Shown piece after piece: positions 6,271-45,731 of a stretch of DNA of 64,000 nt. The stretch's first letter is position 1; the number at the start of each line of letters is the position of its first letter. Position numbers and translations under genes: made by a program. The stretch is from positions 20,730 through 84,729 of the IMG/VR virus record IMGVR_UViG_3300050011_000164; one strand, 5' to 3'. A model generated the notes under the pieces. That model worked only from the letters and a program-made list of their open reading frames with translations. It searched no databases and had not been told where the DNA came from. The stretch comes from a virus.

Positions 6271-6645
6271 CTACTCTTCGGTTCTGTCCAGACGCCGTAG
6301 CGTATGTTCGAGAAGAATGCGGCCTGTCTCGGTGTCGGGCACCAGATTGCCGTCAATGGCAAAGAACCCCCGCTCGTCAATTTCCACAACGGGCGGCTTG
6401 GGTAGTTCGACAACTACGGGCTCGAAGTCCCGCTTGAACATTCCAGCGGGCGGCTCGGGTAGCGGGCCGCAGGACTTCTCATACTCTTCCAGTCGTCTGA
6501 TGACCTCGGGATCGAGCGGCGGGGGTGGGATGAGTGTGTAGCCCTCGATCTCCCTCGGGTGGACAATCTTAAGTCCCTCTCTGCCGTCCTCATCAGTAAA
6601 GACGACAAGCACTTCATCCATATTTTCGATTCTGACAAGCCTCAT
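6271..6645 (-). CDS. Hypothetical protein, Pro-rich
   Basis: ATGA overlap with upstream ORF. Confidence 0.6.
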   Translation of the reverse strand: MRLVRIENMDEVLVVFTDEDGREGLKIVHPREIEGYTLIPPPPLDPEVIRRLEEYEKSCGPLPEPPAGMFKRDFEPVVVELPKPPVVEIDERGFFAIDGNLVPDTETGRILLEHTLRRLDRTEE

Positions 6646-22011: not shown

Positions 22012-24141
22012 TTAAAAACGGCGTCCCTTGCCTCGGGATACCCTGTGGCTTCCGCCGCCAAATTTGAACTTGCTCATCTGGTACGTGCGTTCCGCTTGCT
22101 TCAGGTCCATCATGCTCATAGCATCGATATTGAGGATCGGCTTATGCGGAAGTGCCTGCTGTCGCTGCATGATGAGGCTCTGCCCCGTAGGGTCCATTTT
22201 CAAGTGACCCTCATCGATTAGCCATTGCTGAACTTGCATGGCGACAAGCATGACCGCATCCACCATGTCGTCGTGGGCTCCCTTTTCCAGAGGAGCGTGA
22301 ACGCGGATACGGTACTTGGCAACCACGTCGGTCTCCACCATCTTGATTTCGTGGATGAACTTCGGCACGTACGGAAAATTAGCTGTGTGGTCATTGATGA
22401 ATGACCGTAAAGCGTAAGCCATCTCCGAGTTGATCGCGGGGGTGAGATTCACCAATTCCATGTTATGGACTTCATTTTGCTCCAACAAAGTGATAAGCTG
22501 ACGACCTGCGTGTTGATCGGTTGAGCCCTTAAAACAGGGAAGGATTTTGTTCATTTCCTTCAACCAGAGTAGGATGTCACCTACGGGTAAGAGTTGGAAA
22601 TCCTTGTACTTGATACCGTCAGGAGTTTGAATGACAACCCCCGGACCTTCGAATTGCTCGCCAGCAATCATACGGTCGATGTAGTCAAACACTAGGTGGA
22701 AACCGTGGGTTAATCCGGGTGTTGGATTAGCGGCTTGACGAACCTCAAGGTGCCCAATCGCCAATGCCGAAGCGTCGGGCCTAGTATTATCGGGATCAGT
22801 GACGTTCACACCGCCAAGATCAAGGCCCCAGAAGTAGTTAAAGCCCACTTGATCGCCATTGAATCGCGTGGTGTTTAGACGAACGCTCGCACTGGGTAAA
22901 GGTTTGCCCATGCTGTCCCACGCACCTTCAGGCTTACCATTCACCAAAACATCCGTGCAGGTTATGATATCGATGGATCGAACGAACGATTCCGTAGATT
23001 CCAAGAATTGTCCGCCGTACTCAGCCCTGAACGTGATGGGGTTCTTACGAGCTTTGTCACGCAAGAACCCTGCCTTCAATTTCGGGTTCATTTCTGCCGA
23101 TGAACAACTGAGGGCAAAGGTTGGGTTATCCTCGTTGATACCATCTTCCATCGCCATACGGTAGAGATCGTACATCATACCGACTTTCTTCAATGGCGAT
23201 GAGATGCTCAGAATCAATGAATCCTGAATTTCGACTTTACCATCCGTGCCTGCGGGTTCCACGTGGTGGAAATCGCCCGTCTGGTGAAAGTCGGCCTCGT
23301 CGATGATGGGGGCGGATTCATCGTGATGGAAGTCGCCAGCGGCAGGTGTAGCAGCATCGTACATATCTTCAGACGTAGAACCTATCTCGGAACGGAAGTG
23401 AGCGAACTCATCAAGAGCGAGGAAGAGAGATGACGGACCACGGACAGCGTTCGTAGTACAGGGTAACGACACGACTTGAACAGACGGCTTGGCAGCAACC
23501 TTGTGATGACGGTCAGCCTCGCAAGTGAACGTCAGGTTTTTGGCGTTGTTGTCCTTGATGTAGGTATGGAACCACGTTGCACGAGTGACGGCAGCCTGAA
23601 GCTTTTGGAACAAGCGACCTGCGCCCGTTTCGTCCTGAGCCAAGAAGGTGAAGTCTATCTTTGAGCCCTCAGCCAAACCGAAGAACTTCTGCGGCGAGTT
23701 GATGCACAGCGTTAGGTAGAGCTTGTAGGCGGCAATGGCCGCAACGGCTTCCGATTTACCGCCACGACGACCACAGAAGATAACCGCTTCGTTAAAACCT
23801 CTCTGTGGTATATCTCGCCAGTCTCCGACGTTGCAGCGTCCCTCTTCGTGGACGATATGGAGATACTCTTCTTCCGTGACCGTGCAGATCAGTTCATCGC
23901 GGAAGGGGTTCCACATCTCCACCATTCCCCAGTTTTCGATGGCGTCAGCCCACTTGGGACGATAATCAAACGGGACGGCGAAGAGTGCCTTGATGAGGAC
24001 TCGCTGAACGGGACGCAGGACGATACCCGTCCCTCCCGGTCCTTCAATGAAATCAATGGCATTGATCTTCCTTGTCGCATCAGGCAGGATGTTGTCTGCG
24101 ATCTTTGTCCAAGCTGTATTTTTGACTTTCTTATCAGCCAT
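22012..24141 (-). CDS. terL: Terminase large subunit
   Basis: Walker A CGRRGGKS, Walker B LALDEFAHF, ISSP coupling motif, nuclease GLDLG...HDDMVDA; start placed at MADKK. Confidence 0.88.
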   Translation of the reverse strand: MADKKVKNTAWTKIADNILPDATRKINAIDFIEGPGGTGIVLRPVQRVLIKALFAVPFDYRPKWADAIENWGMVEMWNPFRDELICTVTEEEYLHIVHEEGRCNVGDWRDIPQRGFNEAVIFCGRRGGKSEAVAAIAAYKLYLTLCINSPQKFFGLAEGSKIDFTFLAQDETGAGRLFQKLQAAVTRATWFHTYIKDNNAKNLTFTCEADRHHKVAAKPSVQVVSLPCTTNAVRGPSSLFLALDEFAHFRSEIGSTSEDMYDAATPAAGDFHHDESAPIIDEADFHQTGDFHHVEPAGTDGKVEIQDSLILSISSPLKKVGMMYDLYRMAMEDGINEDNPTFALSCSSAEMNPKLKAGFLRDKARKNPITFRAEYGGQFLESTESFVRSIDIITCTDVLVNGKPEGAWDSMGKPLPSASVRLNTTRFNGDQVGFNYFWGLDLGGVNVTDPDNTRPDASALAIGHLEVRQAANPTPGLTHGFHLVFDYIDRMIAGEQFEGPGVVIQTPDGIKYKDFQLLPVGDILLWLKEMNKILPCFKGSTDQHAGRQLITLLEQNEVHNMELVNLTPAINSEMAYALRSFINDHTANFPYVPKFIHEIKMVETDVVAKYRIRVHAPLEKGAHDDMVDAVMLVAMQVQQWLIDEGHLKMDPTGQSLIMQRQQALPHKPILNIDAMSMMDLKQAERTYQMSKFKFGGGSHRVSRGKGRRF

Positions 24142-24178: not shown

Positions 24179-24352
24179 TTATTCGCCGCGTTCGTACTTG
24201 CAGCCTTCACAGTCGAGTGGACAGGGGGTGGGCACGTAGCAGGTATCACAGATGAAGTATTTGGTGAAATCTTCGCCGAAGAGTTCGGCCATAATCTTCA
24301 ACTTCTTTTCGAGGTCTTCGTCGAGAGGATTATCGCATTTTATACAGTTCAT
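24179..24352 (-). CDS. Small Cys-rich protein (57 aa, not in ORF track)
   Basis: Manual translation MNCIKCDNPL...ICDTC...CPLDCEGCKYERGE. Confidence 0.55.
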   Translation of the reverse strand: MNCIKCDNPLDEDLEKKLKIMAELFGEDFTKYFICDTCYVPTPCPLDCEGCKYERGE

Positions 24353-24354
24353 AA

Positions 24355-24394
24355 GAAAACCGGGGGCGGCTGCGTAGCGGAGAGAACCGCCCCC
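24355..24394 (-). terminator. Terminator downstream of tRNA
   Basis: GGGGGCGGTT...AGCCGCCCCC followed by GGTTTTCTT. Confidence 0.55.
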
Positions 24395-24426
24395 TCAACG
24401 GCACCCACACATGGTGGGGCCGCACT

Positions 24427-24501
24427 TGGAACCCGCGACGGGACTCACACCCGCAACTCCTTCGTTTAGAATGAAGTGCTCTGCAATTGAGCTACGCAGG
24501 T
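24427..24501 (-). tRNA. tRNA with CUA anticodon (amber suppressor-type), atypical D and T loops
   Basis: ACCTGCG TA GCTC-AATTGCA-GAGC A CTTCA-TTCTAAA-CGAAG GAGTT GCGGG-TGTGAGT-CCCGT CGCGGGT T CCA; 75-nt cloverleaf with encoded CCA. Confidence 0.8.
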
Positions 24502-25585: not shown

Positions 25586-28500
25586 TCATTCTTTCGTGCC
25601 GCATATAAAACTGTATGTCGCGATCAAGCTCTCGGTGTCGATGTCATCGATACGGACGAAGACTTCGTACACGTAGCCGCCCTCTTCACCTTCGTGCCAC
25701 ACCGCACCCTGAGCCGAGGAGCTATTGATAGCGTCCTTGATCTCGCTGTCGGTGAGCTTGTTCATCAGGTACTTCACGCGGCTCGCCTGATTGTAGATAT
25801 TGAAACTCGACAAACCTTGCGGCTGTTCGACCTGAGCCAGTTGGATTTCACCCTTGCCCGGGACTTGGTTCAACATCGGACGGTAGGTGACCTTGAACAG
25901 TGCCACTAGGGTAGCCGCAATCTCACCGCAGACGTACTGAAGGAAGATTGAGAACTGCTTGGCTTCGTCGGCACCTGCGACCTTGCCCAGCTTCAGGCTC
26001 TTCAGATAAGCTAGTGCGGAACCCGGACGTACAAACCCTGCGGCTTTGCCGCTTGCGAATGCTTTGCCCGGCACCCCCGTTTGCTGACCGTAAAACTCGT
26101 CCGTAAACATCATACCACGGATGTCATTCTCTTTGCGGAGTGGAGCACCTTCGAGCACTTCAGGCTTGCCATCACGACCGATGCCAGCAGCCGCAGCGGG
26201 GCTGGTGCTGACGTAGGCGATGATGGTGGTGTCAAGAGCACCTTCGAGAGCGGCTGCAAGAGCTATCTCCTCTGGAACTTCGTCCTTGTCACCAACGATG
26301 TCGGGATACTGCATCGGGGTGTTGGTCTGGTTTGGATAATCCACGAGTTCATGCTGAAGCTCGGGGGCGATTTCGCGAAGTACCTGACCCGGGAAGAAAA
26401 AGTTGAAGCCTGCTTCCTTTTCGATCTCTTCGGGAGTCTTAGCCGCACCTTCGCCCGCATGAACTGGGGGAAGTCCTGCCGCTTCTTCTTTGTTGTATTT
26501 GTCCACGGAATCAATTGCTCCTTGTTCGGAATCGCGGATTCCGATGAATTGCTTGCCCTGATTGACCTGCCAGCGAGTGGGGCTAACCTGATCGTATGTG
26601 TATGGTTCTGCTGCTGCTTTCTTCACGCCCTTACCTCCTGCCATATAGTCCTCGTCATCCCAGCGCAAACCGTGCTTAGCTAAGATTTGCAAAGCTTCTT
26701 CTTTGCTCGGCCCGCCCATGACACCCAGCATCGCTGGGTTCATCTTGAGGGAATCGATTGCGATGCGAAGCTGGTGCTTCTCAGGTACGCTCATGGCAGC
26801 CACTCTTTTCAATACTGCGGTTGCTGTCCTGAGGGATTCCATTTTGATGCCCATGTTGTCCAACATCTTGTCGTCCTGCTTATTCGTCTGTGGGTACTTG
26901 TCGGGGTTCTCCGCACGCTCGGATTCCATCTCCGCAGTGGCGATCTCTTCCCAGTTAACTTCATTTGAGGGCTGTTCCCAATCGCTCTGCCCACCCGCGT
27001 CGTACCACATGTTCGTGATACTATCGACGAAATCACGAGCCTTGTTGCCGCTCGGCGATTTCACCACGCCTTCGAGTTGCTCGCGTTCGTGCTTTCCACG
27101 CTCACCACGGGCATTCTCGGCGTTCTCCGCATAGAACTTCTTACTCTGCTCACCGAACTTCTTGAAGAGGCGGGCGAACTGACCTGCCAACTCCTTCGGG
27201 GTCATTTTCTTCTTCAAGGCATTACGAACCAAATTGTGGAGCGTCGTAAGCCCCGCCGAGTCGTTGTTAATCATCAGGGCAGTGTGACCTGTGATCCAAT
27301 CGTCGTAGCCGAAATGGTCCGCCGCCATCTTAGCCAAGCTCATCATGCTGGCTCCCTTAGAGGGCTCCCACTTTACAGTGCAACCTGCGGGACAATCCAC
27401 TGGGTCCTGTAGCCGACCTTCATACGTCCCATCCGCAGCATACGCCACTGGAACCATCGGTGGCTGGGGCTTCGGCGGTACGGGCGACGGTGGTTGACCC
27501 TTCATCTGGCGGCTACGGTTCTGCGAGATGATCTGGTTACGCTCCTGTACCAACTTCTGGTACTCGGCGTATGACGTTGCTGCCAGTTTTGCGGAGGCGT
27601 GCTGCGTCATGTACCGCTTGTAATCGTTCGGTCCCTTTTCCTTACCACCCCAGTATGCGTCGGCATCCGCCAACTCTTCGGAACGCTGGCGGCGAAGTGC
27701 GGGACTGTTGGGGTCCTGTTTCGTCTCAGACGGCGGATGCTGAATGGTCTGCTTCTGATACGGCTGCATCTTCCACAGGTACTTTTCAACAAGCTTGTTG
27801 ACTGCCGCTTCAGGTTTGGGGATCGCAGCGTACTCCTTACGGAAACTGTCCGCATCCGTCCCACGAAGAACGTACTCACGTCCATTCATGGTCAGCAGCA
27901 TGTGGAACCCCTGCTCATCCTGACCCTGTGCCACGTTAATTGCGGCGGTACGAACCATGTGCAGATATTCCTGCCCAGCCTGCTTGAGGTTTGCCTCATT
28001 GAACAAACTTGCGTTCTTAAGAAATGCCGCCTTGAGTTCGTGGTATGTGGCGATCTTTCCCTTGCCGTATTTCCCGCTCAGGATGTCGTCAAGCTGCTGT
28101 TCGGTAATCTTGAAATAATCCATGCAAGACTGACGGCCCATGCCCGAAGTGTACTGACCGCGAACCCGAGCAACTGTGTCGGGACTGGGGGCAGCGCCTT
28201 CGAACAGGCTTTTGTGGCCTGCGTAACCTTCTTGCGGACGCTCTGCGTGCTTTTCCATATTCGGGGTTGCTGACAAGCTCGTACCTCCAAACATACCGTT
28301 AGCTGAAGTGTTTTCCCTCGGGTGCTGCTTCTCACCACCGATAGGTTGTTCTTTCTTACCTGCCTCGATCCCACGACGCGCATACTCTGGTTCACGTGCA
28401 GGAGGAGCCGCTGGCGGCATACTGGATACGGCTTCGGAGCCACATGCAGCGCATTGTCCCCTTACACTGAGTTCTCCCTCGTTGCCGCAATTGAGACATT

Positions 28501-28927
28501 GCCATTTTTCCCGAGGCACTTCGGATGCGATGTTGATGATGATTTGAGTCCCGGGTTTAGCGGTGACTTCTTGTGCGGCGGCGTTGTCCTTGACTTCTTT
28601 GTCTCCATAAGGACCATCGCCCCTAGTCGCCATCTCATCTTCTTTCTCTTCGATGGTTTTACCGATCTCCATCTCGGCCTGAGCTTCGATGGCATCTCGG
28701 ACAGCGGAAACATTCTGGCGTTCAGGCGAACGAATTTCGCCGTCGAGTACGCCTACGCCGCTTTCGTCGTGGGAATTACCCACCAACTCATCGTTACTCG
28801 GCCCAGCTTCCGCCGTAGCTTCGGGGGTTGCTGGTTCGAGCTTCTGAGACAGATCATCGTCGCTGTGCATTAAGTCCGCCCCAACCCTGCGGGCGGCTTC
28901 ACGCAACCTATCGATACTAATTGGCAT
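25586..28927 (-). CDS. Large multi-segment (polyprotein-like) probable virion protein with repeated KxA motifs
   Basis: GGAGCAGGAAG RBS before MPISID; KHAE, KIAT, KNAS, KQAG, RTAA, KLAA, KGAS, KMAA, RVAA, KKAA, KEAG, KAAG, KVAG separate short segments. Confidence 0.75.
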   Translation of the reverse strand: MPISIDRLREAARRVGADLMHSDDDLSQKLEPATPEATAEAGPSNDELVGNSHDESGVGVLDGEIRSPERQNVSAVRDAIEAQAEMEIGKTIEEKEDEMATRGDGPYGDKEVKDNAAAQEVTAKPGTQIIINIASEVPREKWQCLNCGNEGELSVRGQCAACGSEAVSSMPPAAPPAREPEYARRGIEAGKKEQPIGGEKQHPRENTSANGMFGGTSLSATPNMEKHAERPQEGYAGHKSLFEGAAPSPDTVARVRGQYTSGMGRQSCMDYFKITEQQLDDILSGKYGKGKIATYHELKAAFLKNASLFNEANLKQAGQEYLHMVRTAAINVAQGQDEQGFHMLLTMNGREYVLRGTDADSFRKEYAAIPKPEAAVNKLVEKYLWKMQPYQKQTIQHPPSETKQDPNSPALRRQRSEELADADAYWGGKEKGPNDYKRYMTQHASAKLAATSYAEYQKLVQERNQIISQNRSRQMKGQPPSPVPPKPQPPMVPVAYAADGTYEGRLQDPVDCPAGCTVKWEPSKGASMMSLAKMAADHFGYDDWITGHTALMINNDSAGLTTLHNLVRNALKKKMTPKELAGQFARLFKKFGEQSKKFYAENAENARGERGKHEREQLEGVVKSPSGNKARDFVDSITNMWYDAGGQSDWEQPSNEVNWEEIATAEMESERAENPDKYPQTNKQDDKMLDNMGIKMESLRTATAVLKRVAAMSVPEKHQLRIAIDSLKMNPAMLGVMGGPSKEEALQILAKHGLRWDDEDYMAGGKGVKKAAAEPYTYDQVSPTRWQVNQGKQFIGIRDSEQGAIDSVDKYNKEEAAGLPPVHAGEGAAKTPEEIEKEAGFNFFFPGQVLREIAPELQHELVDYPNQTNTPMQYPDIVGDKDEVPEEIALAAALEGALDTTIIAYVSTSPAAAAGIGRDGKPEVLEGAPLRKENDIRGMMFTDEFYGQQTGVPGKAFASGKAAGFVRPGSALAYLKSLKLGKVAGADEAKQFSIFLQYVCGEIAATLVALFKVTYRPMLNQVPGKGEIQLAQVEQPQGLSSFNIYNQASRVKYLMNKLTDSEIKDAINSSSAQGAVWHEGEEGGYVYEVFVRIDDIDTESLIATYSFICGTKE

Positions 28928-31900
28928 CTTCCTGCTCCACAACTAAGTCCGCCAGATCACCGATACCGAGATCGATTGGACGTTCCTCGTCTTCTTCGTC
29001 GCCATAGCCTGCACACGCTGTGTGTGCATTCAGTGCGTCGGTGCCGAGTTCCGCGACAATCTCCAGAGTGTTCTGAAGTTCATCCACGTTATCGCCCTCT
29101 TCGTAAAGCTCACCATCTACGAATACTTGGTAGCCGTCTGTGAAGGTCAGGACTTCGACGCGGCTGTCGTTGAGCATGAAATGCCCCGGCTCGCCATCGT
29201 CACTCCAACCCATACCCACCAGCGTCTCGACATACGGGAATTCCCCGACTTCGGCTGGCATTCCTGCGGCTGCTTCTTTCGTGTCGTCCGCCGCGTCCTC
29301 GTGTGGTGGTTGTGGCTTCTGTGGTTCCACAGGAGCGTCACCGCGTAGTTCTGGTTTCGTCTCCAAAGGCGTATCATTGCCTTTTAACTGATCGTCTTGT
29401 GATTCAGGCTTCGTCGCCAGAGGCTTGCCCTTTGACTGATTGCCCTGTGGCGCAGCCAAGTCACCCTGTTGACGATTGTCGCTGTCAACGCCCGGAGAAA
29501 CGGCATCCGCTGCCTGTTCAGGGTTGCGCGGAGTTCCACGTCCACCCCCGCCGCCTCCACCGCCGCCAGAGCCTTCGCCCGTGCCGCCAGTTCCATCAGA
29601 ACCCGGTCCATCGCCGCCCGGACCCGAACCGCTGTCCGTATCGACGGTAGATGCACCGCCCGTGCCGCCGTTGTAGATGATGATGGTGGGGGTTTTAGGT
29701 TGCACTCCACCAGCAGGTTGACCAGCGGCTTGTACACTGCCGTCTTCACCGCCGCCTTCGTCACCACCCGCTGAGTTTGTGCTCGTTGGTGCAATGCTCA
29801 CAGTTCCACCCGTGCCAGCCCCGCCTGTTCCCGTGCTGGTCGCCGCACCACCCGTGCCAGCCCCGCCCGTACCTGCACCACCCATGCCGCTACCTACGCC
29901 GCCAGTTGATGCACCGCCCGGACTTGAACCGCCAGTTTCGGTTGATGTTTCGTTGCCAGAAGTTTCCGAGGTTCCATTACCACCCGCACCCGCTGGTGCT
30001 GCTACGGCTGCTGGTGCTGGTGCTGCTGGAACCGCTGCTGGTGCTGCTGCTGGTGCTGCCGCTGGAGCTTCAGCCTTCGCGGGAGGAGTAACGGCGGGCT
30101 TATTCTTGCCCTTCGTCTCATCAGGCTTGGCTGCTGGTTCATCTTCAGCTTCGGGTTTCTCGTCAGCTTCAACTTCAGGCTTCTCGTCATCTGCCTCAAC
30201 GGGTTCTTCCTCATCCGCCGAGAAATGCTCAGGGTTGACCGTCTTGGTCGCACGTGAGTCATTCGCCAAATCTTTCTTGGCTCCATGGTCGAGTTCCGAC
30301 TTGGCTTCGGAGATATCCCCCGAGATGTCCGCCGAGTTCATTGTCATACGGTCTGTTTCAGCAATGTCCTGTGCGTAAGCATTATCGGCTTCGCGCTGAG
30401 CTTGAACATACGCTTCTGTTGCAGCTTCCGCTTCTGCCGCAAACTCAGGGTAGACCTGACCCGATACTGGGTCGATGTGCTCTTCACAGTCTTCCGCTGG
30501 TATCTGGCAGATTGCACAGAAGTCTTGTGCGCCTGCTGGCGGTTCATCGTTACGGCTGATGGCGGTCTTCTGAGAAGAACGCTTACCAGCCTCGCCTACG
30601 GACTCCGTGGGCTGCTTGATGTCCTTGTCAACGGTGTCTGGGTTGACTACTTCGGACTTCGCTTCCGAGATGTCCCCCGAAATGTCAGCCGCGTTACGAC
30701 GTGTCAGTTCACGAGCATCGCGTTGACGCTGCGCTTCCAGACGTTTCGCACGCTCTTCATTGGTTTCTTCCGCCACATCACCCTCTACCTTGAACATCGG
30801 CTCTTCTTCCTTCGACCACGTAGCCAACGGGTTCTGGTAGGTGCCGTCGTTCGGGTAAACCGCAGCTTCAGTTGGGTCGAAATGACCAATCAGATGCTCG
30901 TTGTGCCCGCCGGGTTCCATGCTCTTGAGCAAAGCTTCCATATATCGTGCGAGGTTCGCATCATTTGGCTTACCTGCACCACGCTGTTGTCCGTAACCCT
31001 TCACGTCCCACGCAGCATCGGTCGAGCCCGGAATACGAATGACGTACTTCGGTGTAATGGTACGGCCAGCGGTCTTGCTGATATCAGCGTCCGTCTTCGG
31101 AAGGATGGCACCGTCGCCATCAGCTTCGTTTGCAGGATTGTCGGCGGTGTCCGCCGTCTTTCCCTCACCGAAGTAAGATGCGAAGTCATCCTCGGCGTAA
31201 TTTGCCGTCTTTTCGCTCGACGCCAGAATCGCGTCGTCAAAGTTGGGCTCCATCTGCTCTTCCAGAGTGATGTACTGAGTGTTCTCTCCGAAAGGAACGT
31301 CGCTCTCTTCGAAGTGACCATTCTTATCGCGACAATCGCCATTCCAACCGAGTCCGAGTTTCTCGGAGGTCGTCAAGGATGGGTGTACGCCGCCGCAGGC
31401 ACCGCACTCGTAGAATACTGCGGGTGCCGTTGCTTGAGCTTCTTCCATCTGATCCAATGCCGCGCCATTTTCGTCAGCGAGGATGGAATCGAGTCCAGCG
31501 AAATGCTCATCGTCTTCGTCGTAACCGTTATCGAACGAAGGCTCCGCAGAGCAGCATGGATCATCCTCGTTCACGGTGCTGCCGCATTCGAAGCACTTAC
31601 GCTGCTTTACCCAACCCTGTTGGTCGGCGTCCCAGCGAGAATTCTGGTTGGGGCAACCTGTTTCGTGAGTCGCAACACCGTTGATGCTCAACATCTCGCA
31701 CTGGTCGCAACGAACACGCTGTCTGGGGCGAGCATTAGGTGCAGCCGTCTTGGAGTCTTCTTCCTTTGGCTCTTCCTTCTCTTCCTTTGGCTCGTCCTTC
31801 TTCTCGGACTTACTCTTGCCACGGTTCTTCGCCCATTCGGATTTAGAACCACCCTCGGACTTTGTTTCTTTCGAGTCCGCCGATGCTCCGTCGTCGCCCG

Positions 31901-34571
31901 TGCTGGGCTCGTCCTCTTCGGACTTGGTGGTATCGTTCTCAAGAGCCTCTTCCACCTTTACGGTCGGCTCTTCCTGATCGCCCTTGACCTGCTCGGGAAC
32001 GTCGCTCTTCGAGTCCGCACTCATCTCTGGAGCTTCGATCTCGTGCTGCCCTGTGGTGGACTTTTCGTTGTCCTTACTCTCGCCCGGAAGTCTAATCTCG
32101 GGTGCAGGCCCCATGTCTTCCATCGTCTCGGACCAAATGTCGTCGATATCCTGAGGAACATCGGCGAATTTCTTACGCTGAGACGAATACTTGCGGGCCA
32201 TCTCTTCTTCACGCTTCTTAGCCGCCGTGACGGAGTGCTGCGAGCGAGCATCGTAATCCTCGCCGCCAAACCCGCCGCCAATCAAACTGGCAATGTAGGA
32301 TGCGTCGTTTTGCGAAGCCGTCTTCTTGGACGCCTTCTTGGAGGAGATCACGGGTGGAACCTGCCCACCCTTCTGATCCTGTCCGTGGTCGCGTTCGCCA
32401 GCGTCTTCTGCTCCGAACTGATAGATCATGTCATCGTCACCGACGTAAATGTCCACGTTACCCCAAGCCTTGGAAGCCTCGGTCAAGCCATCGCCCGTTG
32501 TCGGGTAATCGCCATCCCAATAGCCCGCTCCGTGACCGCAGCGGGTGAGCCAGAAATCATGACCCTGACGGAAGTCGTCCTGACCATCCTGTTCGGATGC
32601 CGCAGCCAAAAGCTCGGCATTCTCCGCTTGGAACTTAGCGCAATCTTCGGTCATCGCCTGCAAGCAGGAGGGAGCGAGATCGCGGATATCGTAATTCTGA
32701 TCCAATGGCTGTCCACCGCTTGGATCGGACTCGTCATTCGAAGACCACAGAGCGGTCTCGATGTAGCCACGAGTGAAGTTGTCGAATTCAGCGGCGACCT
32801 TCTTGGCAGTGCCCACCCACAAGGAGGAAGCCTGCTTCTTGCCTAGCCCGCCCCACTTGGCGGCGTCGAAAGATGCGTGATGATCCTTCAGAGCATCTTT
32901 GCCCTGACGAGCCTGACTCACGTTCTTCTTCAAGTGCTCACTGATGGCTTCGGGATCGTCCTCTGCACCCTTCTTCGAAGACGAGATCGACAAAGGAGTC
33001 GGCCCATGCTTCCCTGCGGCGATCTCCTTCTTGTGATCGGCTACCGCGTGATGAGCCTGATTATCCTGACTCATGCTGGCGGCGTATTCCTTCATCTTGT
33101 CGGCATGTTTTTCGAGAGCCTCTTTAGCCTCTTTACCGCCTTTGCGGACTCCATCCAGTACCGCACTAGCGGATGCGCTCAAATCGCCAGCCTGAGTTTG
33201 TGCCGCGAGACGTTCAACATCCCCCGTACAGGTCAGACCCTCAACACGCTTCGCCTGCTTGTCAGCGGCCCTCTTGTCGTACTGAGCCTTGACTTCGCCA
33301 GCCCATGGACCCGGATTCTTTTCCTCGTACTTCTGGATCGCTTCCTTTATGTTGCTCGCCCATGTCGTGCTTGCAACATATTTGCCGCTAACGAAGATAT
33401 CGATCTTCGGGAAATCGCGACGGTCGCCGTAAGCGGCGGACTTTCCCTTACGCTCTTCTTCTGGACGGCGAGGTACGCCAGTCTCATCGAGAGCGATGCC
33501 AATTGGTGCGCTGTTGATGACGGCCTTCGGCGTGTCCTTCTCGTCCTTGTAACCTTCGGTGCGCTGGTTAGCTTCGTCGTGAGCTTCGGTGCCGGGGCCA
33601 ACGTTCGTAATCGGGGTCTCGAATACCGCAGTGGCGGAACCCTTCTTGACGCCCTTGTTGCAGAACTTGCAGCCATCGCCTTCGCACTTGTCGCATTCCT
33701 GAGCCGCAATACGGGGAACCATTTCGCCCTTTGTCGGAGCTTTACCTTCGGAAGCGTTTTCAACGCCCTTGGTGCCGCTTGGCATGATGCTGTTGCGGAG
33801 AGCCGTGTCCAAAGATTCGAACACGTCCATCTCCTGAGGTTCTAAGACAGCTTTGGTAACTTCGTCGGCGGTCTTGATGGTCAAACCGAGGCGGGTTCTC
33901 TTCTTCGACCCTTCCTTGGTGAGGAGCGGGTATTCCTTCAACGGATTCTCAGCCAAAGCGGGGAAGTTCATCTTCGGCGTGATGTCCGTGACATCGAACT
34001 TCGAGGTCTCCACATCGGTCATCATGGCATCGAATGCCGAGGACAGACGGGGGTCGAAGTACGAACTGAAGACCAAATGACGGGTCAGGTTTGCAAGCTG
34101 GTTATCGTCTTTCGGGAATTGGAAACCGATGTACTCACGCTTGTTAACCCAGTTAGGAGCGAACAGGATGAGGGCGGCGAACTTACCATCTTCGGAGCCG
34201 AACAACTCTTCCTTAATCGACGCATAGGACGCCTGAGAATATTCATCCCATTCGGTATCACCGATTTTGTGGGAGATCATGTCGCCAATTTCCTCACCAC
34301 CAAAGGTGCGAACAAGACAACCATAGAGCAGTGCGGTCGGGAAGTCCTGCCCCTTCTTGTCAGCAACCGAGGGAGGGACGATGTAGATACGACCGATGGC
34401 AATGTTCTGACGAAAGCCCTTGTAAAAAATTTCAAAGCTTTGGACGTTGCCCGAACTACGGGCTTCCTTCTCGCCAGCCTTAATAGCTTCGACAGTTTTG
34501 CTAAGCAACCCATCATTGACCATGAAGGACTGGAAAGACTTTAATGCGACTGTGTTTCCGCTCTGAGCCAT
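28917..34571 (-). CDS. 1884-aa multi-segment (polyprotein-like) probable virion protein with repeated KxA motifs
   Basis: KTAD, KSAA, KRAA, KQAK, KHAD, KQAS, KVAA, KTAS, KFAD, KTAA, KTAN, KTAG, KTAI; internal repeat ADISGDISEAKSE; Gly/Thr/Ala low-complexity tract. Confidence 0.8.
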   Translation of the reverse strand: MAQSGNTVALKSFQSFMVNDGLLSKTVEAIKAGEKEARSSGNVQSFEIFYKGFRQNIAIGRIYIVPPSVADKKGQDFPTALLYGCLVRTFGGEEIGDMISHKIGDTEWDEYSQASYASIKEELFGSEDGKFAALILFAPNWVNKREYIGFQFPKDDNQLANLTRHLVFSSYFDPRLSSAFDAMMTDVETSKFDVTDITPKMNFPALAENPLKEYPLLTKEGSKKRTRLGLTIKTADEVTKAVLEPQEMDVFESLDTALRNSIMPSGTKGVENASEGKAPTKGEMVPRIAAQECDKCEGDGCKFCNKGVKKGSATAVFETPITNVGPGTEAHDEANQRTEGYKDEKDTPKAVINSAPIGIALDETGVPRRPEEERKGKSAAYGDRRDFPKIDIFVSGKYVASTTWASNIKEAIQKYEEKNPGPWAGEVKAQYDKRAADKQAKRVEGLTCTGDVERLAAQTQAGDLSASASAVLDGVRKGGKEAKEALEKHADKMKEYAASMSQDNQAHHAVADHKKEIAAGKHGPTPLSISSSKKGAEDDPEAISEHLKKNVSQARQGKDALKDHHASFDAAKWGGLGKKQASSLWVGTAKKVAAEFDNFTRGYIETALWSSNDESDPSGGQPLDQNYDIRDLAPSCLQAMTEDCAKFQAENAELLAAASEQDGQDDFRQGHDFWLTRCGHGAGYWDGDYPTTGDGLTEASKAWGNVDIYVGDDDMIYQFGAEDAGERDHGQDQKGGQVPPVISSKKASKKTASQNDASYIASLIGGGFGGEDYDARSQHSVTAAKKREEEMARKYSSQRKKFADVPQDIDDIWSETMEDMGPAPEIRLPGESKDNEKSTTGQHEIEAPEMSADSKSDVPEQVKGDQEEPTVKVEEALENDTTKSEEDEPSTGDDGASADSKETKSEGGSKSEWAKNRGKSKSEKKDEPKEEKEEPKEEDSKTAAPNARPRQRVRCDQCEMLSINGVATHETGCPNQNSRWDADQQGWVKQRKCFECGSTVNEDDPCCSAEPSFDNGYDEDDEHFAGLDSILADENGAALDQMEEAQATAPAVFYECGACGGVHPSLTTSEKLGLGWNGDCRDKNGHFEESDVPFGENTQYITLEEQMEPNFDDAILASSEKTANYAEDDFASYFGEGKTADTADNPANEADGDGAILPKTDADISKTAGRTITPKYVIRIPGSTDAAWDVKGYGQQRGAGKPNDANLARYMEALLKSMEPGGHNEHLIGHFDPTEAAVYPNDGTYQNPLATWSKEEEPMFKVEGDVAEETNEERAKRLEAQRQRDARELTRRNAADISGDISEAKSEVVNPDTVDKDIKQPTESVGEAGKRSSQKTAISRNDEPPAGAQDFCAICQIPAEDCEEHIDPVSGQVYPEFAAEAEAATEAYVQAQREADNAYAQDIAETDRMTMNSADISGDISEAKSELDHGAKKDLANDSRATKTVNPEHFSADEEEPVEADDEKPEVEADEKPEAEDEPAAKPDETKGKNKPAVTPPAKAEAPAAAPAAAPAAVPAAPAPAAVAAPAGAGGNGTSETSGNETSTETGGSSPGGASTGGVGSGMGGAGTGGAGTGGAATSTGTGGAGTGGTVSIAPTSTNSAGGDEGGGEDGSVQAAGQPAGGVQPKTPTIIIYNGGTGGASTVDTDSGSGPGGDGPGSDGTGGTGEGSGGGGGGGGGRGTPRNPEQAADAVSPGVDSDNRQQGDLAAPQGNQSKGKPLATKPESQDDQLKGNDTPLETKPELRGDAPVEPQKPQPPHEDAADDTKEAAAGMPAEVGEFPYVETLVGMGWSDDGEPGHFMLNDSRVEVLTFTDGYQVFVDGELYEEGDNVDELQNTLEIVAELGTDALNAHTACAGYGDEEDEERPIDLGIGDLADLVVEQEDAN
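30296..30690 (-). repeat. Intragenic direct repeat encoding ADISGDISEAKSE (2 copies, about 30296-30333 and 30652-30690)
   Basis: Seen in translation and nucleotide sequence. Confidence 0.8.
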
Positions 34572-34586: not shown

Positions 34587-35129
34587 TTACTTCTGTTTGT
34601 TTGTGCCGATGTTTTCCGCTTCGCGACGAATGCGGAGTTCGTTCATTTCGATTTGGCTACGGAATTGCTTGACGTAGCTGGTAACCGTGTGCTCGTCCCA
34701 GCCCATGGAGCGGAGAGCTTCAACGCCCATCTGCAACCACTGGCCAGCGACGAACTGGAACTTCTCGCCATCGAAGTTGATGAAGTCACGCTTCGCTTGA
34801 TTGTCCATCTCAATGATTTGGCGACCAAGTTCACGGACGCCCTTCAGTTGCTCGCTGAGACTCTTGATGGCGAGATTGGCATCCATACCTTTAATACCCG
34901 AGGTTGGATTGTCCAGATGTTCGTTCATGCCGTCCAAAATCGACGCCATTTCGAGGGCGATGAGTTTGCTGAGTTCCGCCTGACTGATATTCGTGTCTTC
35001 GATCTTCGTCCGAATCTCATTCAGTTTGGAGCTAAGCTCACGCTTGCCCGGTTTCTTGACTTCCGCCGCCGCGTTGTACTTTCCTTCCAGATTGATCACC
35101 AGTTCTGTACGCTCGGTTTCGTTGCTCAT
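34587..35129 (-). CDS. Helical hypothetical protein in the late operon (terminase small subunit possible)
   Basis: TAATG coupling; all-helical character; function unverified. Confidence 0.6.
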   Translation of the reverse strand: MSNETERTELVINLEGKYNAAAEVKKPGKRELSSKLNEIRTKIEDTNISQAELSKLIALEMASILDGMNEHLDNPTSGIKGMDANLAIKSLSEQLKGVRELGRQIIEMDNQAKRDFINFDGEKFQFVAGQWLQMGVEALRSMGWDEHTVTSYVKQFRSQIEMNELRIRREAENIGTNKQK

Positions 35130-40455: not shown

Positions 40456-42741
40456 TTATCCTATCTTTCTTCGATTGTCCGCGTTCCTATTGCGATACAA
40501 GGCCCCCTGACTTGGTTTCACATGCCCCGTAAGAGCCTTCGAAGCCGCCGTCTGTATCTGTGGGTTCGGTTGAGGGGGAGGAGTGGGGGCTTGTTGCGAC
40601 GAAGATGCGCGTATATCGGAGCCGATGTGGGCTGGACCTGAGGTTTCAGATTGTCGAAACTGCCAGCCATGTGCGATGCATACACTACAAGCCGAGACGT
40701 TGTGACGATTACACCGCGCCACTTTTGGATCAGGCAGAGGTTGTGGTTGCGGAGGTTGTAGTGGAAGCGGTGGAGAAGGTTCGGTTGGCAAATTAAGGAC
40801 TGGCGCTATCAACTTATGCCAGATAAGAACAGCTTGAGTGGATGGTAGTGCTGTTATGACAGTAAAGTCAGTCCCGGACGGCACACGGAATGGGTGCCAA
40901 TAAAAATCAGGCAGTATCGTGCGGAGGATGCCCGCATCCGCCATGACCTGACCAACCCAACGGTCGTCCGCGAAATCGTTGTTCAACGGAGTATCCACAA
41001 GTATCTGTATTGCTTTCTTCGAGAACCAAACCGCACCGCCTGTGATGTAGTGATGCGGCCATGTTCCTTTCTTGTAGTGGGGGAACCCCAAATCAGGTCT
41101 ACCCCAGTCATTCGCATCACAGTGATTTCCCGCGTAATCAGCGTCCACGTGATGGATATGACTCACTTGAATGTAGGTGTCATCGTCAACCTTGAGCATC
41201 TCATCATACTGATGCTCTTGAGCCCACTTAAAGATAGCTTTGGCTTTGAGTGGAAGATGAATATAGTCGTCAGGAACCCCCAGACGTTCCCCATCAAAGA
41301 ACTCAACATCGTACCCAGCCGCCTGAGCGAGGGGAACCCATGTATCGCGGAGAGCCTGTTGACGGGCGGCGTACTTCTTACACGTGACGATGGCTATGAG
41401 AACCCTCGGTAAGCTCGTAAAAAATTCTGGCGGAATTTCATTTAAGCTCGTTTCGGGAATATCCTTGGTTCCCATAGCGGAAGATGAAGTGCAGGTATTC
41501 TTGTTGTGCGCTCGAATAACCATGAGCTTTTCAGCGTTTACTCCTACGAGTTGTCCCACTCTAGACGCCCCATAGCCCAAGTTGGTGTCTTCCCCAACCA
41601 TAATGTCGTCAAACTTATGGCTCTCCCACCATGTTTTGCGGTAGCAAAACGTTGCCCCATGAGGAGAGACACAGTAAACTGGATGATAGCGATAAATCTT
41701 GTGAGTAGACATGTTCCAGTACAGCATATTGTGGTATGTCATCACTTGCTTCCCGCTGCGCTCTAGTTTAGAGACTTGATCCGTGATTCGACTCGGTGCT
41801 GACCAATCGTCGTCATCAAAATGAATGATAAACTCTCCCTGAGCCTGTTCACAGCAAATATTACGTTTCGCCCCCGTTGTTCGTCTGGGTCCTTCTAGAC
41901 GAATGTATCTAATCCGGGGATTGTATGGAATGAGGTCCGCTACGTTGTCTGTGCCGTCGTCAAGAATTATCAGTTCTGAATCCGTGAACGTTTGCGATAG
42001 GAAGCACGCGATCATTGACGGCAGGTAGCGCCTGCGGTTATATGTTGGGCAAATGACAGTTACCTTCACCTTCAGCGGTAGTGGCAGGCTCAAAGGAAAC
42101 TCGGCGGGAAGTTCCCGCAGGTCCACCTGTGGAATACCCACAGTTCCCATAGACAGGGCGGTAACGCAATGGTTACTGCTGTGCGCTCTGACGACCATGA
42201 ATTTCTCAGCGTCTACGCCCACGTACTGTTCCGCCCTTTCCGCTGCATAACCAAACTCGGTATCTTCAAGGCAATTATCGTCAAATTTGTGCTGCGCCCA
42301 CCACGCTTTCCGATAACAAAACGATGCACCGTGAGGAGTTCCCCTAAAGGTGGGGTGGAAGAGGTAAAGTCGGCGGGTATCGACATTCCAATACAAAATG
42401 TTGTAGTAAGTCAACACCTGCTTCTGGGTGCGTTCTAACTCTGAAATCTGATGTGCGATTCGACCCGGTGCTGACCAGTCGTCATCGTCAAAATGAACTA
42501 TAAACTCCCCTTGAGCATGTTCACAACAAATGTTACGTTTTACGCCTGTGGACAATCCCGGTCCTTCGAGTCTGATGTATTTAATCCGAGGATTGTCAGG
42601 GATGAGGTCTACTATGCTATCGGTACCATCGTCAAGGATTATCAGTTCTGAATCCGTAAACGTCTGAGACAGAAAGCTCGCAATCGTTTGGGGGATGTAC
42701 TGCCTGCGGTTGTGTGTTGGGCAAATGACGGTCACTTTCAC
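40456..42741 (-). CDS. Three-domain glycosyltransferase: two GT2 domains plus a GT31/fringe-like domain
   Basis: [11 protein letters not shown]...ILDDG...HFDDDDWS twice; third domain RDTW...DDY..LPLK...KVDDDTYI...GG...DDRWVG. Confidence 0.88.
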   Translation of the reverse strand: MKVTVICPTHNRRQYIPQTIASFLSQTFTDSELIILDDGTDSIVDLIPDNPRIKYIRLEGPGLSTGVKRNICCEHAQGEFIVHFDDDDWSAPGRIAHQISELERTQKQVLTYYNILYWNVDTRRLYLFHPTFRGTPHGASFCYRKAWWAQHKFDDNCLEDTEFGYAAERAEQYVGVDAEKFMVVRAHSSNHCVTALSMGTVGIPQVDLRELPAEFPLSLPLPLKVKVTVICPTYNRRRYLPSMIACFLSQTFTDSELIILDDGTDNVADLIPYNPRIRYIRLEGPRRTTGAKRNICCEQAQGEFIIHFDDDDWSAPSRITDQVSKLERSGKQVMTYHNMLYWNMSTHKIYRYHPVYCVSPHGATFCYRKTWWESHKFDDIMVGEDTNLGYGASRVGQLVGVNAEKLMVIRAHNKNTCTSSSAMGTKDIPETSLNEIPPEFFTSLPRVLIAIVTCKKYAARQQALRDTWVPLAQAAGYDVEFFDGERLGVPDDYIHLPLKAKAIFKWAQEHQYDEMLKVDDDTYIQVSHIHHVDADYAGNHCDANDWGRPDLGFPHYKKGTWPHHYITGGAVWFSKKAIQILVDTPLNNDFADDRWVGQVMADAGILRTILPDFYWHPFRVPSGTDFTVITALPSTQAVLIWHKLIAPVLNLPTEPSPPLPLQPPQPQPLPDPKVARCNRHNVSACSVCIAHGWQFRQSETSGPAHIGSDIRASSSQQAPTPPPQPNPQIQTAASKALTGHVKPSQGALYRNRNADNRRKIG

Positions 42742-43589
42742 AAGTTTTCCTCGATGATCTTCCCCAGTGGATTCGGTTGACAATAAGTAGCGATTGTGCG
42801 ATTGAAGTTGTCATCGATTGCCGCAGCCTTCTCCTGATACGTGTCGGGAGTGATGGACTGCAATACTCGAATAAGGTCGTCATAGGTTTCGAACCGAAGA
42901 ACCCCATCCATATTGAAGTATTCTTCTAAGTTCGGACATCCCCAATAGATCGGGATCGTTTTGCTTATGAAGCAGTCGAATACCTTTTCGGTCATCCAGT
43001 TGTTATACTGGCAGTTTTCCACAGCGATGTGGTACCTGAAATCCGTGAAAAAATGCCCTCTCGCATCTTCGTCTATCCGTGGCGGTGAGCGATGTTTATG
43101 GATAGGCAATAATCCAACAGACTCGGGGAGTCGGGAAAATATCTCTTGCCTCAACATGTGTCCTGAGAGCGCGTTCATGTGGCTAGTTAAGAACGAGGCC
43201 GAAAACACTTTTGCCGAGTTCAGAGGGCAGACGTAACGCGGTTCGGGCGTAGTATACCATCCCACGTGCGAAGGTATCACAAAATCATTGCCCAGAATGC
43301 TGAGGTACGGTCCCGAGTGCAAATACTTAACGGCGTTGGGACACGCTTGGAGGATGCTCTCCCTCCACGTTAGGATCAAATCATAGAATTTATGGTTGTC
43401 GATAACCTTTTGAACCAAATCTTGGTCCGTTGGATAAGGCTCGTGGTCGTGGAATACCCGATAAGGCGAACGGTCTTCCAAGTCCACATCAGATCGGATG
43501 GATATCCCTTCTTTGCCGCCGATAGAGTGCAATATCATTGGGGGTCCATATCCTGTGTTAACCTCGGAGTTTTGATTTGTCCATGTCAT
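42738..43589 (-). CDS. GT10-like (alpha-1,3/4-fucosyltransferase family) glycosyltransferase
   Basis: FRYHIAVEN....[10 protein letters not shown]...TIPIYWG. Confidence 0.8.
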
Positions 43590-44553
43590 TGCAGGTCTCC
43601 CCCGCCCCTACAGTCTGAAGATCATAGTCAACCATCATCTCTACCAGTTCCTTAAACCTAGTCTTTGCTTCCCACCCGAGAACACGCTTAGCCTTTGAAG
43701 CGTCTCCGAGGAGAATGTCCACCTCAGTTGGTCGGTAGTATTTGGGGTCTACCCTGACATACTTTGTCCAGTCCATTTCAAGGCGGCCAAATGCTACATC
43801 CAGAAGCTCACGTATGGTGTGAGTCTCACCCGTAGCGATTACGAAATCGTCTGGTTCTGGCTGTTGCACCATGAGCCACATCGCCTCTACATATTCCTTG
43901 GCGTACCCCCAATCTCGCTTGGCGTCCAGATTTCCGAGCAGCAACTCATTTTGTTGCCCTAGCTTGATCTTTGCTGCCGCCATGGTGACTTTGCGCGACA
44001 CAAAGGTTTCACCTCTACGGGGGGATTCATGGTTAAACAGTATGCCGTTACAGGCGAATGTGCCCATCTCGCGATAGTTCACTGTCGTCCAGAATGCGAA
44101 CTGTTTAGCCACACCGTAGGGACTTCGAGGATAAAACGGTGTATCCTCGTTTTGTGGAATCTCCTGCACTTTCCCGAAAAGCTCACTAGACGATGCTTGG
44201 TAAAACTTTGCCTCTGGGCATTGTGCTTTGATCGCTTCGAGAAGCCTGAGAGTCCCGATGGCATCTACATCAGCCGTATATTCAGGAACTTCAAAGCTAA
44301 CGCGCACATGGCTCTGCGCTCCCAAATTGTAAACTTCGTCTGGTTTTACTTCTCCTATGATACGGCTTAGGGAGCTTCCATCTGTCAGGTCACTGTAGAA
44401 GAAATGCATTCTATCGATGATATGGTCTATCCTCCCCGTGTTAAAACTGCTGGACCTTCGAATGGTTCCGTACACATCGTATCCCTTGTCCAAAAGCAGT
44501 TCAGCGAGATAGGAGCCATCCTGACCCGTGACCCCCGTTATGAGTGCTTTCAT
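43558..44553 (-). CDS. gmd: GDP-mannose 4,6-dehydratase
   Basis: [57 protein letters not shown]. Confidence 0.97.
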
Positions 44554-45731
44554 CTCGATGCCCCTTCGAAGTAGCTGGCAAAAACGTCTGTAACAAATCT
44601 CATATCCTCATGCGTGAGTCCTTGGTGCATACCGATGAAGAACCCTTGCTTCTCAAGCAAGCAGGCCACGGGGTACTCCAAATACAAATTCGGAAACAGC
44701 TTATGGTACACGGGCTGGCTGAGGAGCGGAAACATGTAGCGTGTCTCGATGCCGTTTTTCTCCAGATGCAGCAGTAAAGCCTCTCTATCCACCCCGGGTT
44801 TGGCAACCATGGGGTACATCATAAAAGAGTGATCGTATCCCGTGGGAATAACTGGAAATTGTAAGTAATTCTCAAATTTTGAAAGCATGATCGTCAACGC
44901 AGCGGCGTTGTTTCTACGGTTCGCTAAATTGCCTTCCCAACGTTCTAATTCCGATAAAGCAATCGCCGCTTCGATCTCTGTGCAGCGGTATGAGTATCCC
45001 ACACGGTCGAAGCTGTATCGACGTTTGATTAGGCGCTCCAATTCTTTGTCGCCCACGTTATCGTCGTCGTCGATGCTGAGATAGATGTTGTCCCGACCGT
45101 GCGCCAAAAGACTGCGGCACATTTCGGCATTTTCGGGATCGTTCGTAATGACCAACCCCCCAACACCGCCAACAATAAGGTGTGCCACATACGTAGAGAA
45201 GCACGCCATGTCACCGAAGCTGCCGACTGATTTTCCTTCAATTCCAGCAAACATCGTTTCGCAGGAATCTTCAATCACTTGAAGGTTGTGGTCCTGCGCT
45301 ATTTCCATGATCGCTGGCATCTCCGCTGGGAGACCGAAAAGGTGAACTGGAATGATTGCTCGCGTTTTGCTTGTAATTTTTCCTAGAATCTCTTCGGGGT
45401 TCATGTTGAACGTGTTTGGATCGACATCCACGAACACGGGCTTTAGGTTGTTCTGGATCACGATGTTGGACGTGGCAATAAAGGTGATCGCTGGAACCAA
45501 AACCTCATCTCCGTCTTGGTACTTGTAGCGTTCCTTAAGGGTGGCGAGGGCGATCTGAAGGGCGCTGGTACCGCTGTTGCAGAACACACCGTGTTTGGCT
45601 CCATGAAGTTCGGAAAACTGCCTTTCAAGTTGCGCTGTGTACTTCCCCCGAGAGAGACGATTGTTGTCCAAACAGTCGTTGACGTACTTCTTGCCCTGTT
45701 CGCTGATCTGTAAATGCCCCAGTGCTACCAT
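44550..45731 (-). CDS. DegT/DnrJ/EryC1/StrS PLP-dependent sugar enzyme; His replaces the usual Lys (STYVAH), as in ColD/E1-type dehydrases
   Basis: [36 protein letters not shown]. Confidence 0.85.

Follow-up and report, generated by a model that had tools for sequence, protein, structure and literature searches.

A conserved amber-anticodon tRNA with a remodelled elbow next to the terminase gene of standard-code soil jumbo phages

Suppressor tRNAs of phages are usually treated as instruments of stop-codon recoding. A tRNA gene with the amber anticodon CUA, an unusual elbow and a position upstream of the terminase gene raises the question of which use such a molecule has in a phage with TAG as a regular stop. 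The window analysed here is a 64,000-nt stretch of the 84,729-bp contig G000, an IMG/VR virus record with a CheckV completeness of 26% and thus a fragment of a genome of about 300 kb. ARAGORN, one of the checks suggested with the original prediction, called a single tRNA in the window, at 24427–24501 on the minus strand (75 nt, anticodon cta), and no further tRNA on the whole contig. The Rfam model RF00005 matched 24430–24501 on the same strand with 51.4 bits (E-value 4.1e-08 in the 64-kb window), above the gathering score of 29.

In a positional parse, the acceptor stem ACCUGCG/CGCGGGU has seven pairs, one of them U4·G69. Positions 8 and 9 are U8 and A9. The D stem GCUC/GAGC closes the D loop AAUUGCA (24482–24488, minus strand) from which GG is absent; U stands in place of G18, and G19 is present, in a numbering taken from the homolog L295b (AAUGGCA). 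The anticodon stem CUUCA/CGAAG has an unpaired A31·C39 and carries the loop UUCUAAA with U33, A37 and A38. The anticodon CUA (24467–24469, minus strand; TAG on the plus strand) is invariant in all seven distinct variants of this tRNA. The variable loop has 5 nt. The T stem GCGGG/CCCGU closes the T loop UGUGAGU (24443–24449, minus strand; parse and Rfam), with U54 G55 U56 G57 A58, which differs from the canonical U-U-C at positions 55 and 56. The 3' end is U73, followed by a genome-encoded CCA. These are the features of a class I cloverleaf: stems of 7, 4, 5 and 5 bp, a 7-nt anticodon loop, U33, a purine at position 37 and a 3' CCA, with A31·C39 as the one mismatch. As expected for an amber suppressor, CUA lies in a normal 7-nt loop. 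The canonical elbow (G18 G19; U54-U55-C56-R57-A58) is missing, and U54, R57 and A58 of it are kept. Together with identical or nearly identical copies in relatives, the parse identifies a genuine, conserved phage-encoded tRNA gene that is predicted to read UAG.

The conserved downstream neighbour of the tRNA is the gene of the large terminase subunit (22012–24141, minus strand; PHROG phrog_2, E-value 3.7e-11), its start placed by alignment and translation. Between the two genes lie, all on the minus strand, two hairpins and a small gene. A 26-nt hairpin with the core CCCAC-CAUGU-GUGGG (24398–24423), seen in sequence and folding, follows directly 3' of the CCA end. It also follows the tRNA in L001–L004 and L006; the L006 copy (L006:3825–3850) is kept even at 64% terminase identity. 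The next element, a G+C-rich hairpin followed by the U tract GGUUUUCUU (24353–24394), folds like an intrinsic terminator, and one search gave only a partial match. The 82-nt stretch with both hairpins has a folding energy of -39.7 kcal/mol (z -3.2 against shuffles). A Cys-rich ORF of 57 aa (24179–24352) has homologous small ORFs in G003 and G004. The original prediction had described a complete CUA cloverleaf with a 7-bp acceptor stem, U73, CCA and an A31-C39 mismatch, a non-canonical elbow (AATTGCA; TGTGAGT), a position upstream of the terminase and a terminator after the tRNA. All of this was found, on the minus strand, and the parse and the phrog_2 match bear it out.

Other genes of the window give a picture of the phage. 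A 490-aa protein (784–2256, minus strand) carries an InPase domain (PF18823, 104 bits) joined to a nucleotidyltransferase domain of the RelA/SpoT type (42–44 bits). It is the gene called SAS in the original prediction, which suggested that the altered elbow might let the tRNA evade host nucleases or this protein; no connection between the gene and the tRNA was found. The region 40456–50769 (minus strand) is a large cluster of nucleotide-sugar and glycosyltransferase genes, which encode GT2, GT10, GT11, a GDP-mannose dehydratase, a DegT aminotransferase and epimerases. An 840-aa ice-binding-like protein (51812–54334, plus strand) and, among the scanned ORFs, a TonB_C protein are also encoded. 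An ORF of 4132 aa spans window positions 1–338 and upstream DNA (genome 8669–21067, minus strand); its counterpart in G005 is three adjacent genes.

The tRNA is found in a clade of jumbo phages from peat and permafrost that have large tRNA sets. Among isolates, only the Tunturiibacter phage Tunturi_5 has a clearly related terminase (40% identity); it was described as a myovirus of 309 kb with an Acidobacteriota host from tundra soil (PMC11924767). It has no suppressor tRNA. The relative G005, which contains locus L006, has 455,708 bp and is rated 100% complete. The GC content of the phage is about 53%. A 5-kb stretch around the tRNA, used as query, matched metagenomes from peat and permafrost in several studies; no RNA run was listed as containing it. 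Among contigs from four DNA runs, X3 and X4, each from a further peat run of another study, have identical copies of the tRNA; X2 and X5 do not reach it.

Six IMG/VR contigs encode a related terminase (88, 88, 88, 88, 84 and 64% identity). In five of them, ARAGORN called the same CUA tRNA immediately before the terminase. The sixth, L006 with 64% identity, has a 106-nt form in the same place (Rfam match of 103 nt, 46.8 bits). The tRNA is almost invariant in the alignment of the relatives, and the flanks of L005 cannot be aligned. A scan of metagenome contigs with a terminase profile gave 10 loci (L175–L184), of which L177 and L179 are the already counted G003 and G005 records and L176 has no upstream DNA. 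ARAGORN found the CUA tRNA in five of the ten (L177, L178, L180, L181 and L182), and L183 and L184 have a 104-nt form (Rfam, 48.9 bits). L175, with a 91% identical terminase, is without the tRNA but still carries the 3' half of the terminator-like hairpin; in this region (L175:1900–2520), a different small Cys-rich ORF abuts the remnant. L175 thus lost the tRNA, which is dispensable at least there.

Covariation was studied in seven distinct variants, six from loci adjacent to the terminase and L295b from a tRNA array of a related phage. Pairs were counted by an explicit positional parse; MAFFT alignments of short and long forms mis-register the 3' half of the anticodon stem. A covariance model also matched ordinary tRNAs, and its alignment was excluded from the counts. 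Standard pairs fill 142 of 147 stem cells, and the five non-pairs are four A31·C39 and one G27·A43. Two-sided compensatory changes occurred in 12 of 21 stem pairs; eight pairs are invariant. All five anticodon-stem pairs change, with CUA and A37 kept in 7/7 and U33 in 6/7 variants. The discriminator differs between orthologous variants, U73 or G73. Judged by these substitutions, the tRNA is under selection for its structure and its anticodon. The compensatory stem changes and the invariant anticodon argue that it is not a relic, and the homologs show such changes in place of random decay.

The elbow follows a similar pattern. In L295b and L006 the loops are canonical, AAUGGCA or AAUCAGGCA in the D arm with UUCCAAU or UUCAACU in the T arm. 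In comparison with L295b, the window tRNA has U in place of G18, G in place of U55 and U in place of C56. Positions 18 and 19 of the 7-nt D loop are our own assignment, derived from L295b. With this numbering, the pair 18:55 is G:U in L006 and L295b, U:G in the window tRNA, L001, L181 and L178, and C:G in L183, and 19:56 is G-C or G·U across the variants. The contact between D loop and T loop therefore appears to be rebuilt by co-varying pairs and not lost. Non-canonical elbows also occur among the other tRNAs, in 6 of 11 in G003, 7 of 61 in G005 and 3 of 42 in Tunturi_5; in this sub-lineage they are thus a lineage trait and nothing special to the suppressor. Two features count against a working suppressor: G55 cannot become pseudouridine, and G18 is missing. 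Handling by the ribosome, RNase P or EF-Tu could be impaired.

The mismatch A31·C39 is also retained. L181 has it although the pairs 27-43, 28-42 and 29-41 are all exchanged, and it occurs with the same loop in a G005 paralog and in L295b. A scan of IMG/VR by a pattern of D arm and loop gave at least 118 stretches and 113 new loci. Among the matches listed, these loci contained 104 CUA tRNAs with the pattern, 85 of them distinct. A non-pair at 31:39 was present in 23 of 102 distinct CUA tRNAs and in 22 of 419 other tRNAs of the same contigs, counted among the matches listed together with G003, G005 and Tunturi_5. This corresponds to an odds ratio of 5.3 among the matches listed (Fisher p = 6e-7), a p-value that is only indicative, given the relatedness of the sequences and the choice of the CUA set by pattern. 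When IMG/VR was scanned for exact patterns of the anticodon arm and of the T arm, only the five known relatives matched inside a tRNA; the other 25 and 35 loci were unrelated hairpins. Mismatch and elbow had been taken as possible signs of decay. Their retention in L181, the recurrence of the mismatch in phage CUA tRNAs and the covariation of 18:55 and 19:56 speak against this view.

Genes were called with our own, crude caller (codon log-odds and interval scheduling). Under code 11, 91% of G000 is coding, and the relatives have fractions of 0.86–0.92. The 91 genes of G000 end with TAA (51), TGA (23) and TAG (17). TAG terminates 14–19% of the genes in suppressor-carrying genomes of the clade versus 27% in the suppressor-free Tunturi_5. 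Code 11 scored highest in G000, G003, G004 and G005 when compared with TAG-, TGA- and TAA-sense codes. Coding density was highest under code 11 in G000 and G004 and was exceeded by 0.001–0.002 in G003 (TGA-sense) and G005 (TAG-sense). In G005, 0.858 under code 11 compares with 0.860 under TAG-sense, and code 11 has the clearly better score. Pfam domains lie at full length within code-11 ORFs. A wholesale recoding of TAG was rejected because code 11 was best in four genomes, including the complete G005. This agrees with the original prediction, in which TAG was a normal stop. The standard code and the use of TAG to end 14–19% of the genes indicate that the tRNA is not part of a code change.

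Individual sites of read-through were sought in several ways. In-frame extensions past TAG were no longer than those past TAA or TGA. Cross-genome tblastn alignments contained in-frame stops (6 TAG, 10 TAA and 3 TGA), and none of the inspected TAG cases was convincing. A TAG near the SAS gene (2266–2268), aligned to Gln, was rejected: it precedes the GTG start by 9 nt and is part of the leader, and 18 codons before it stands a TGA. Another in a giant gene of G005 (353,429) falls on a gene junction with repeats and is unconvincing. A TAG of G004 (138974) is located in the middle of an alignment, an HSP with 33% identity that also contains a TAA, and a further one falls in a 50-aa ORF of G003. 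Alignments that span a stop with at least 12 residues on each side, in G000, G003, G004 and G005, were found for 9 of 83 TAG, 86 of 324 TAA and 18 of 150 TGA stops. Genes ending with TAA often precede an ORF in the same frame, for example 34587–35129 followed by 28917–34571 in the window, probably an effect of tight same-frame spacing. Among orthologs aligned up to the C-terminus, TAG was the least conserved stop. None of six TAG stops of G000 was TAG in the G005 ortholog (five TAA, one TGA), in a comparison that covers 15–87 ortholog pairs per genome pair. There was no clear excess of nearby second stops after TAG. An A followed TAG in 26 of 171 cases versus 145 of 561 for TAA; this context was given no weight, since the genomes share orthologs. 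The material compared contains neither wholesale recoding nor a conserved read-through site.

Accessory genes for decoding were also sought. No RF-1-domain gene was found in G000–G004, with G000 at 26% completeness, and no RF2 in any record including G005. G005 encodes a truncated RF1-type protein of 218 aa with PPT and GGQ motifs that scores 190 bits with the prfA model, below its cut-off. Such a protein would favour UAG termination and not weaken it. The gene and an ORF with a KYDG ligase-like motif that directly follows it (L185:1219–2486, G005 133,757–135,024) are situated within a tRNA array. Catalytic domains of the GlnRS/GluRS, class IIb, TrpRS/TyrRS and PylS/PheRS-alpha types were absent from the five records searched for each, including the complete G005, and the scanned window ORFs contained no translation factor or aminoacyl-tRNA synthetase of the families searched. 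Of the phage synthetases and release factors that the original prediction proposed to look for, the truncated RF1-type protein of G005 was thus the only one found. With none of the four catalytic families in the phage records, charging would have to rely on a host enzyme.

A parent isoacceptor did not stand out. Among 114 other tRNAs of G003, G005 and Tunturi_5, none was decisively nearest, and Lys(UUU), Thr(CGU) and Met were similar. The G73 variants have A1-U72 and G73 in common with Trp and Gln tRNAs of these phages. By comparison with known amber suppressors (10.1101/2021.08.26.457843), glutamine is most likely the amino acid charged, with lysine or tryptophan as possibilities. With U73 or G73 as the discriminator of orthologous variants, this assignment is tentative.

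Some relatives carry more than one CUA tRNA: G005 has two in an array besides the one adjacent to the terminase, and L295 has three. The array pair of G005 lies at 25,800–26,350 (L057, minus strand); one has A73 and A31·C39, the other A1-U72 and G73. In the same cluster are a tRNA whose anticodon loop has 8 nt (gcaa) and one with the loop UAUUUAA, and mini-helices of about 50 nt that end in ACCA sit between its tRNAs. ARAGORN found no tRNA-Trp(CCA) in the complete G005. Extra arms or insertions of 10–34 nt, unusual for class I, occur in Arg, Thr, Gln and Pro tRNAs of the lineage and in the long CUA forms (G003 45,230–47,588 and 77,926–78,013; L183:904–1007; L006:3698–3803). A conserved element of about 70 nt adjoins tRNA arrays in unrelated phage contigs of IMG/VR (L121, L126, L128, L132, L138, L142 and L143). 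It ends in the hairpin GCGGGUGUAAGUCCCG and was not called a tRNA by ARAGORN.

These observations are best explained by a functional phage-encoded amber suppressor, tRNA-Sup(CUA), that is charged by a host enzyme in a soil jumbo phage with the standard code. We give this reading, which is drawn from sequence comparison, a probability of about two in three. The tRNA, with its own terminator at the head of a block of packaging and structural genes, would be processed to a 75-nt molecule with the encoded CCA and would fold into the L-shape. U18·G55 and G19·U56 would hold the elbow in place of G18·U55 and G19-C56. A host aminoacyl-tRNA synthetase would charge the tRNA, which could then compete with release factor 1 at UAG and cause partial read-through. 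Its role would most likely be a general, possibly late-timed, lowering of UAG termination. Possible uses are host takeover, the buffering of amber mutations or a stage before recoding. Some findings count against this reading. An efficient suppressor should be costly with TAG at the end of 17 of 91 genes. TAG stops are evolutionarily labile but not avoided outright. Conditional amber read-through, one of the suggestions of the original prediction, is still the most plausible activity, but no TAG that needs suppression was found.

Other readings make different use of the same data. A stage-specific recoding would place in-frame TAGs in late genes, possibly in the missing 74% of the genome, with the tRNA as the switch. 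The contig is only 26% complete, G005 and L295 have several CUA tRNAs, and the TAG share of 14–19% is below the 27% of Tunturi_5, all of which would fit. The position directly upstream of the terminase, wherever the tRNA is present, recalls the ‘code change module’ described in 10.1101/2021.08.26.457843. Recoding is nevertheless unlikely, as the complete G005 scores better under code 11 at densities equal within 0.002 and the ORFs of the late block that follows the tRNA in the window are intact. In-frame TAGs in tblastn were only six, against ten TAA and three TGA, with unconvincing cases among those inspected; stop-spanning alignments were rarer for TAG (9/83) than for TAA (86/324), and extensions after TAG were not longer. 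A programmed read-through of a single TAG, giving a C-terminally extended protein like the coat extensions of RNA phages, has two candidates in the window with open extensions and a mildly positive coding score: 6271–6645 (minus strand, +109 codons) and 56118–56864 (plus strand, +55 codons). G003 and G004 share the TAG of the second candidate, but the ortholog of this gene in G005 ends with TGA, and 0/6 TAG stops of G000 are TAG there. The extensions fall on the following gene or overlap a gene in another frame, and identity in spanning alignments is generally lower downstream of TAG than upstream. With 15–87 comparable ortholog pairs per genome pair, we regard a programmed site as very improbable.

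The RNA might also be tRNA-like without a part in translation, as a processing or stabilising element of the terminase transcript or as a decoy for an enzyme that acts on tRNA. Such a role would suit the unusual elbow, the fixed position beside the terminase, the conserved extra hairpin after CCA, the variants with a 34-nt extra arm and the small ACCA-ended hairpins between the array tRNAs of G005. Some members of the RelA/SpoT family modify tRNA 3' ends, and an enzyme of this type is encoded on the contig. A processing signal or a generic decoy would not need an invariant CUA, A37 in 7/7 and U33 in 6/7 variants. The terminator separates the tRNA from the terminase gene, and close homologs sit inside ordinary tRNA arrays (L295, G005), so this role is improbable. 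A decaying relic, as considered in the original prediction, or a neutral one could stem from a former suppressor or from a sense tRNA with a mutated anticodon. The mismatch in the anticodon stem, the non-canonical D and T loops, the loss in L175 and the lack of target codons among the genes inspected would be in line with decay. Near-invariance beside diverged flanks, identical copies in X3 and X4, compensatory change in 12/21 pairs and 142/147 paired cells are not, and mismatch and elbow changes are themselves conserved or co-varying. A relic is accordingly highly improbable. The ARAGORN label ‘tRNA-Pyl’ stems from the CUA anticodon alone. Pyrrolysine tRNAs have one nucleotide between acceptor and D stems, a 3-nt variable loop, a 6-bp anticodon stem, a small D loop and the synthetase PylS. 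The window tRNA resembles them in CUA and in the absence of G18G19 and T-Psi-C. It has a 2-nt linker, a 5-nt variable loop, an anticodon stem of five positions and a 7-nt D loop, and PF01409 (PylS/PheRS-alpha type) matched in 0/5 records including the complete G005; the chance of a pyrrolysine tRNA is negligible.

The conservation of a suppressor across a standard-code clade implies a selectable use that is independent of recoded genes. A crude look at IMG/VR suggests that the carriage of suppressors by standard-code phages is common among the matches listed. In a more speculative and rather doubtful version of the suppressor reading, the clade keeps several remodelled amber suppressors, the one beside the terminase and two or three in the tRNA array, as a weapon or timer and not as decoders of its own genes. 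A late lowering of UAG termination would then harm the host proteome and TAG-reliant competitors more than a phage that prefers TAA. Alternatively, the tRNAs might provide a translational repair of C-to-U damage (CAG to UAG). If this version were true, natural phage suppressors would share the weak 31:39 pair as a general feature of their design. The findings of most note are the conservation without recoding, the co-varying elbow, an apparently selected 31:39 mismatch, the variants with extra arms, and several suppressors together with an RF1-like gene in a complete relative. The swapped 18:55 pair, the G19·U56 wobble, A31·C39 and the extra-arm forms are natural variants for the engineering of amber suppressors that are orthogonal or more efficient. 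With them, one can test concretely how far the bacterial translation apparatus tolerates changes at the elbow.

The amber suppressors used in laboratories with E. coli and phage T4 (supE, su7, psu) stem from single mutations in sense tRNAs and are, to our knowledge, not maintained in nature. The window tRNA shares with them CUA with A37 and A38, the probable charging by anticodon-sensitive GlnRS, LysRS or TrpRS and the presumed competition with RF1. It differs from them in being naturally conserved and in having no clearly identifiable sense-codon sibling. Pyrrolysine tRNAs and some mitochondrial tRNAs lack G18G19 and T-Psi-C. Unlike these, the window tRNA is otherwise a standard class I tRNA whose elbow is apparently rebuilt by swapped and wobble pairs.

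Closer counterparts are found in phages. Translation genes of huge phages were described by Al-Shayeb et al. (PMC7162821), and phage suppressor tRNAs, likely charged by the host GlnRS, by Borges et al. (2021; 10.1101/2021.08.26.457843). TAG-recoded crAss-like, Lak and other gut phages, as described there and in PMC13037316, are large and rich in tRNAs and have a CUA tRNA just ahead of late genes and no dedicated synthetase, so that host charging is presumed; in these points they are like the window phage. Unlike them, the window phage and its relatives use the standard code with TAG as a regular stop, have a GC content of about 53%, which is not low, live in peat and permafrost and have a remodelled elbow. 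No RF2 was found in the clade, and one relative has an RF1-like gene. One standard-code phage of the Agate clade acquired a TGA suppressor, which was read as a possible step before recoding (10.1101/2021.08.26.457843). It parallels the present case as a suppressor tRNA in a code-11 genome. The Agate-clade phage is, in that account, a single close relative of recoded phages, whereas the tRNA described here is found throughout a clade whose terminases are as little as 64% identical and in which no recoded member was seen. Around similar CUA tRNAs of IMG/VR, only 4 of 82 loci look recoded in a crude local test among the matches listed. The phage CUA suppressor is of a kind already known (10.1101/2021.08.26.457843; PMC13037316), and its setting in a standard-code clade is the less usual part.
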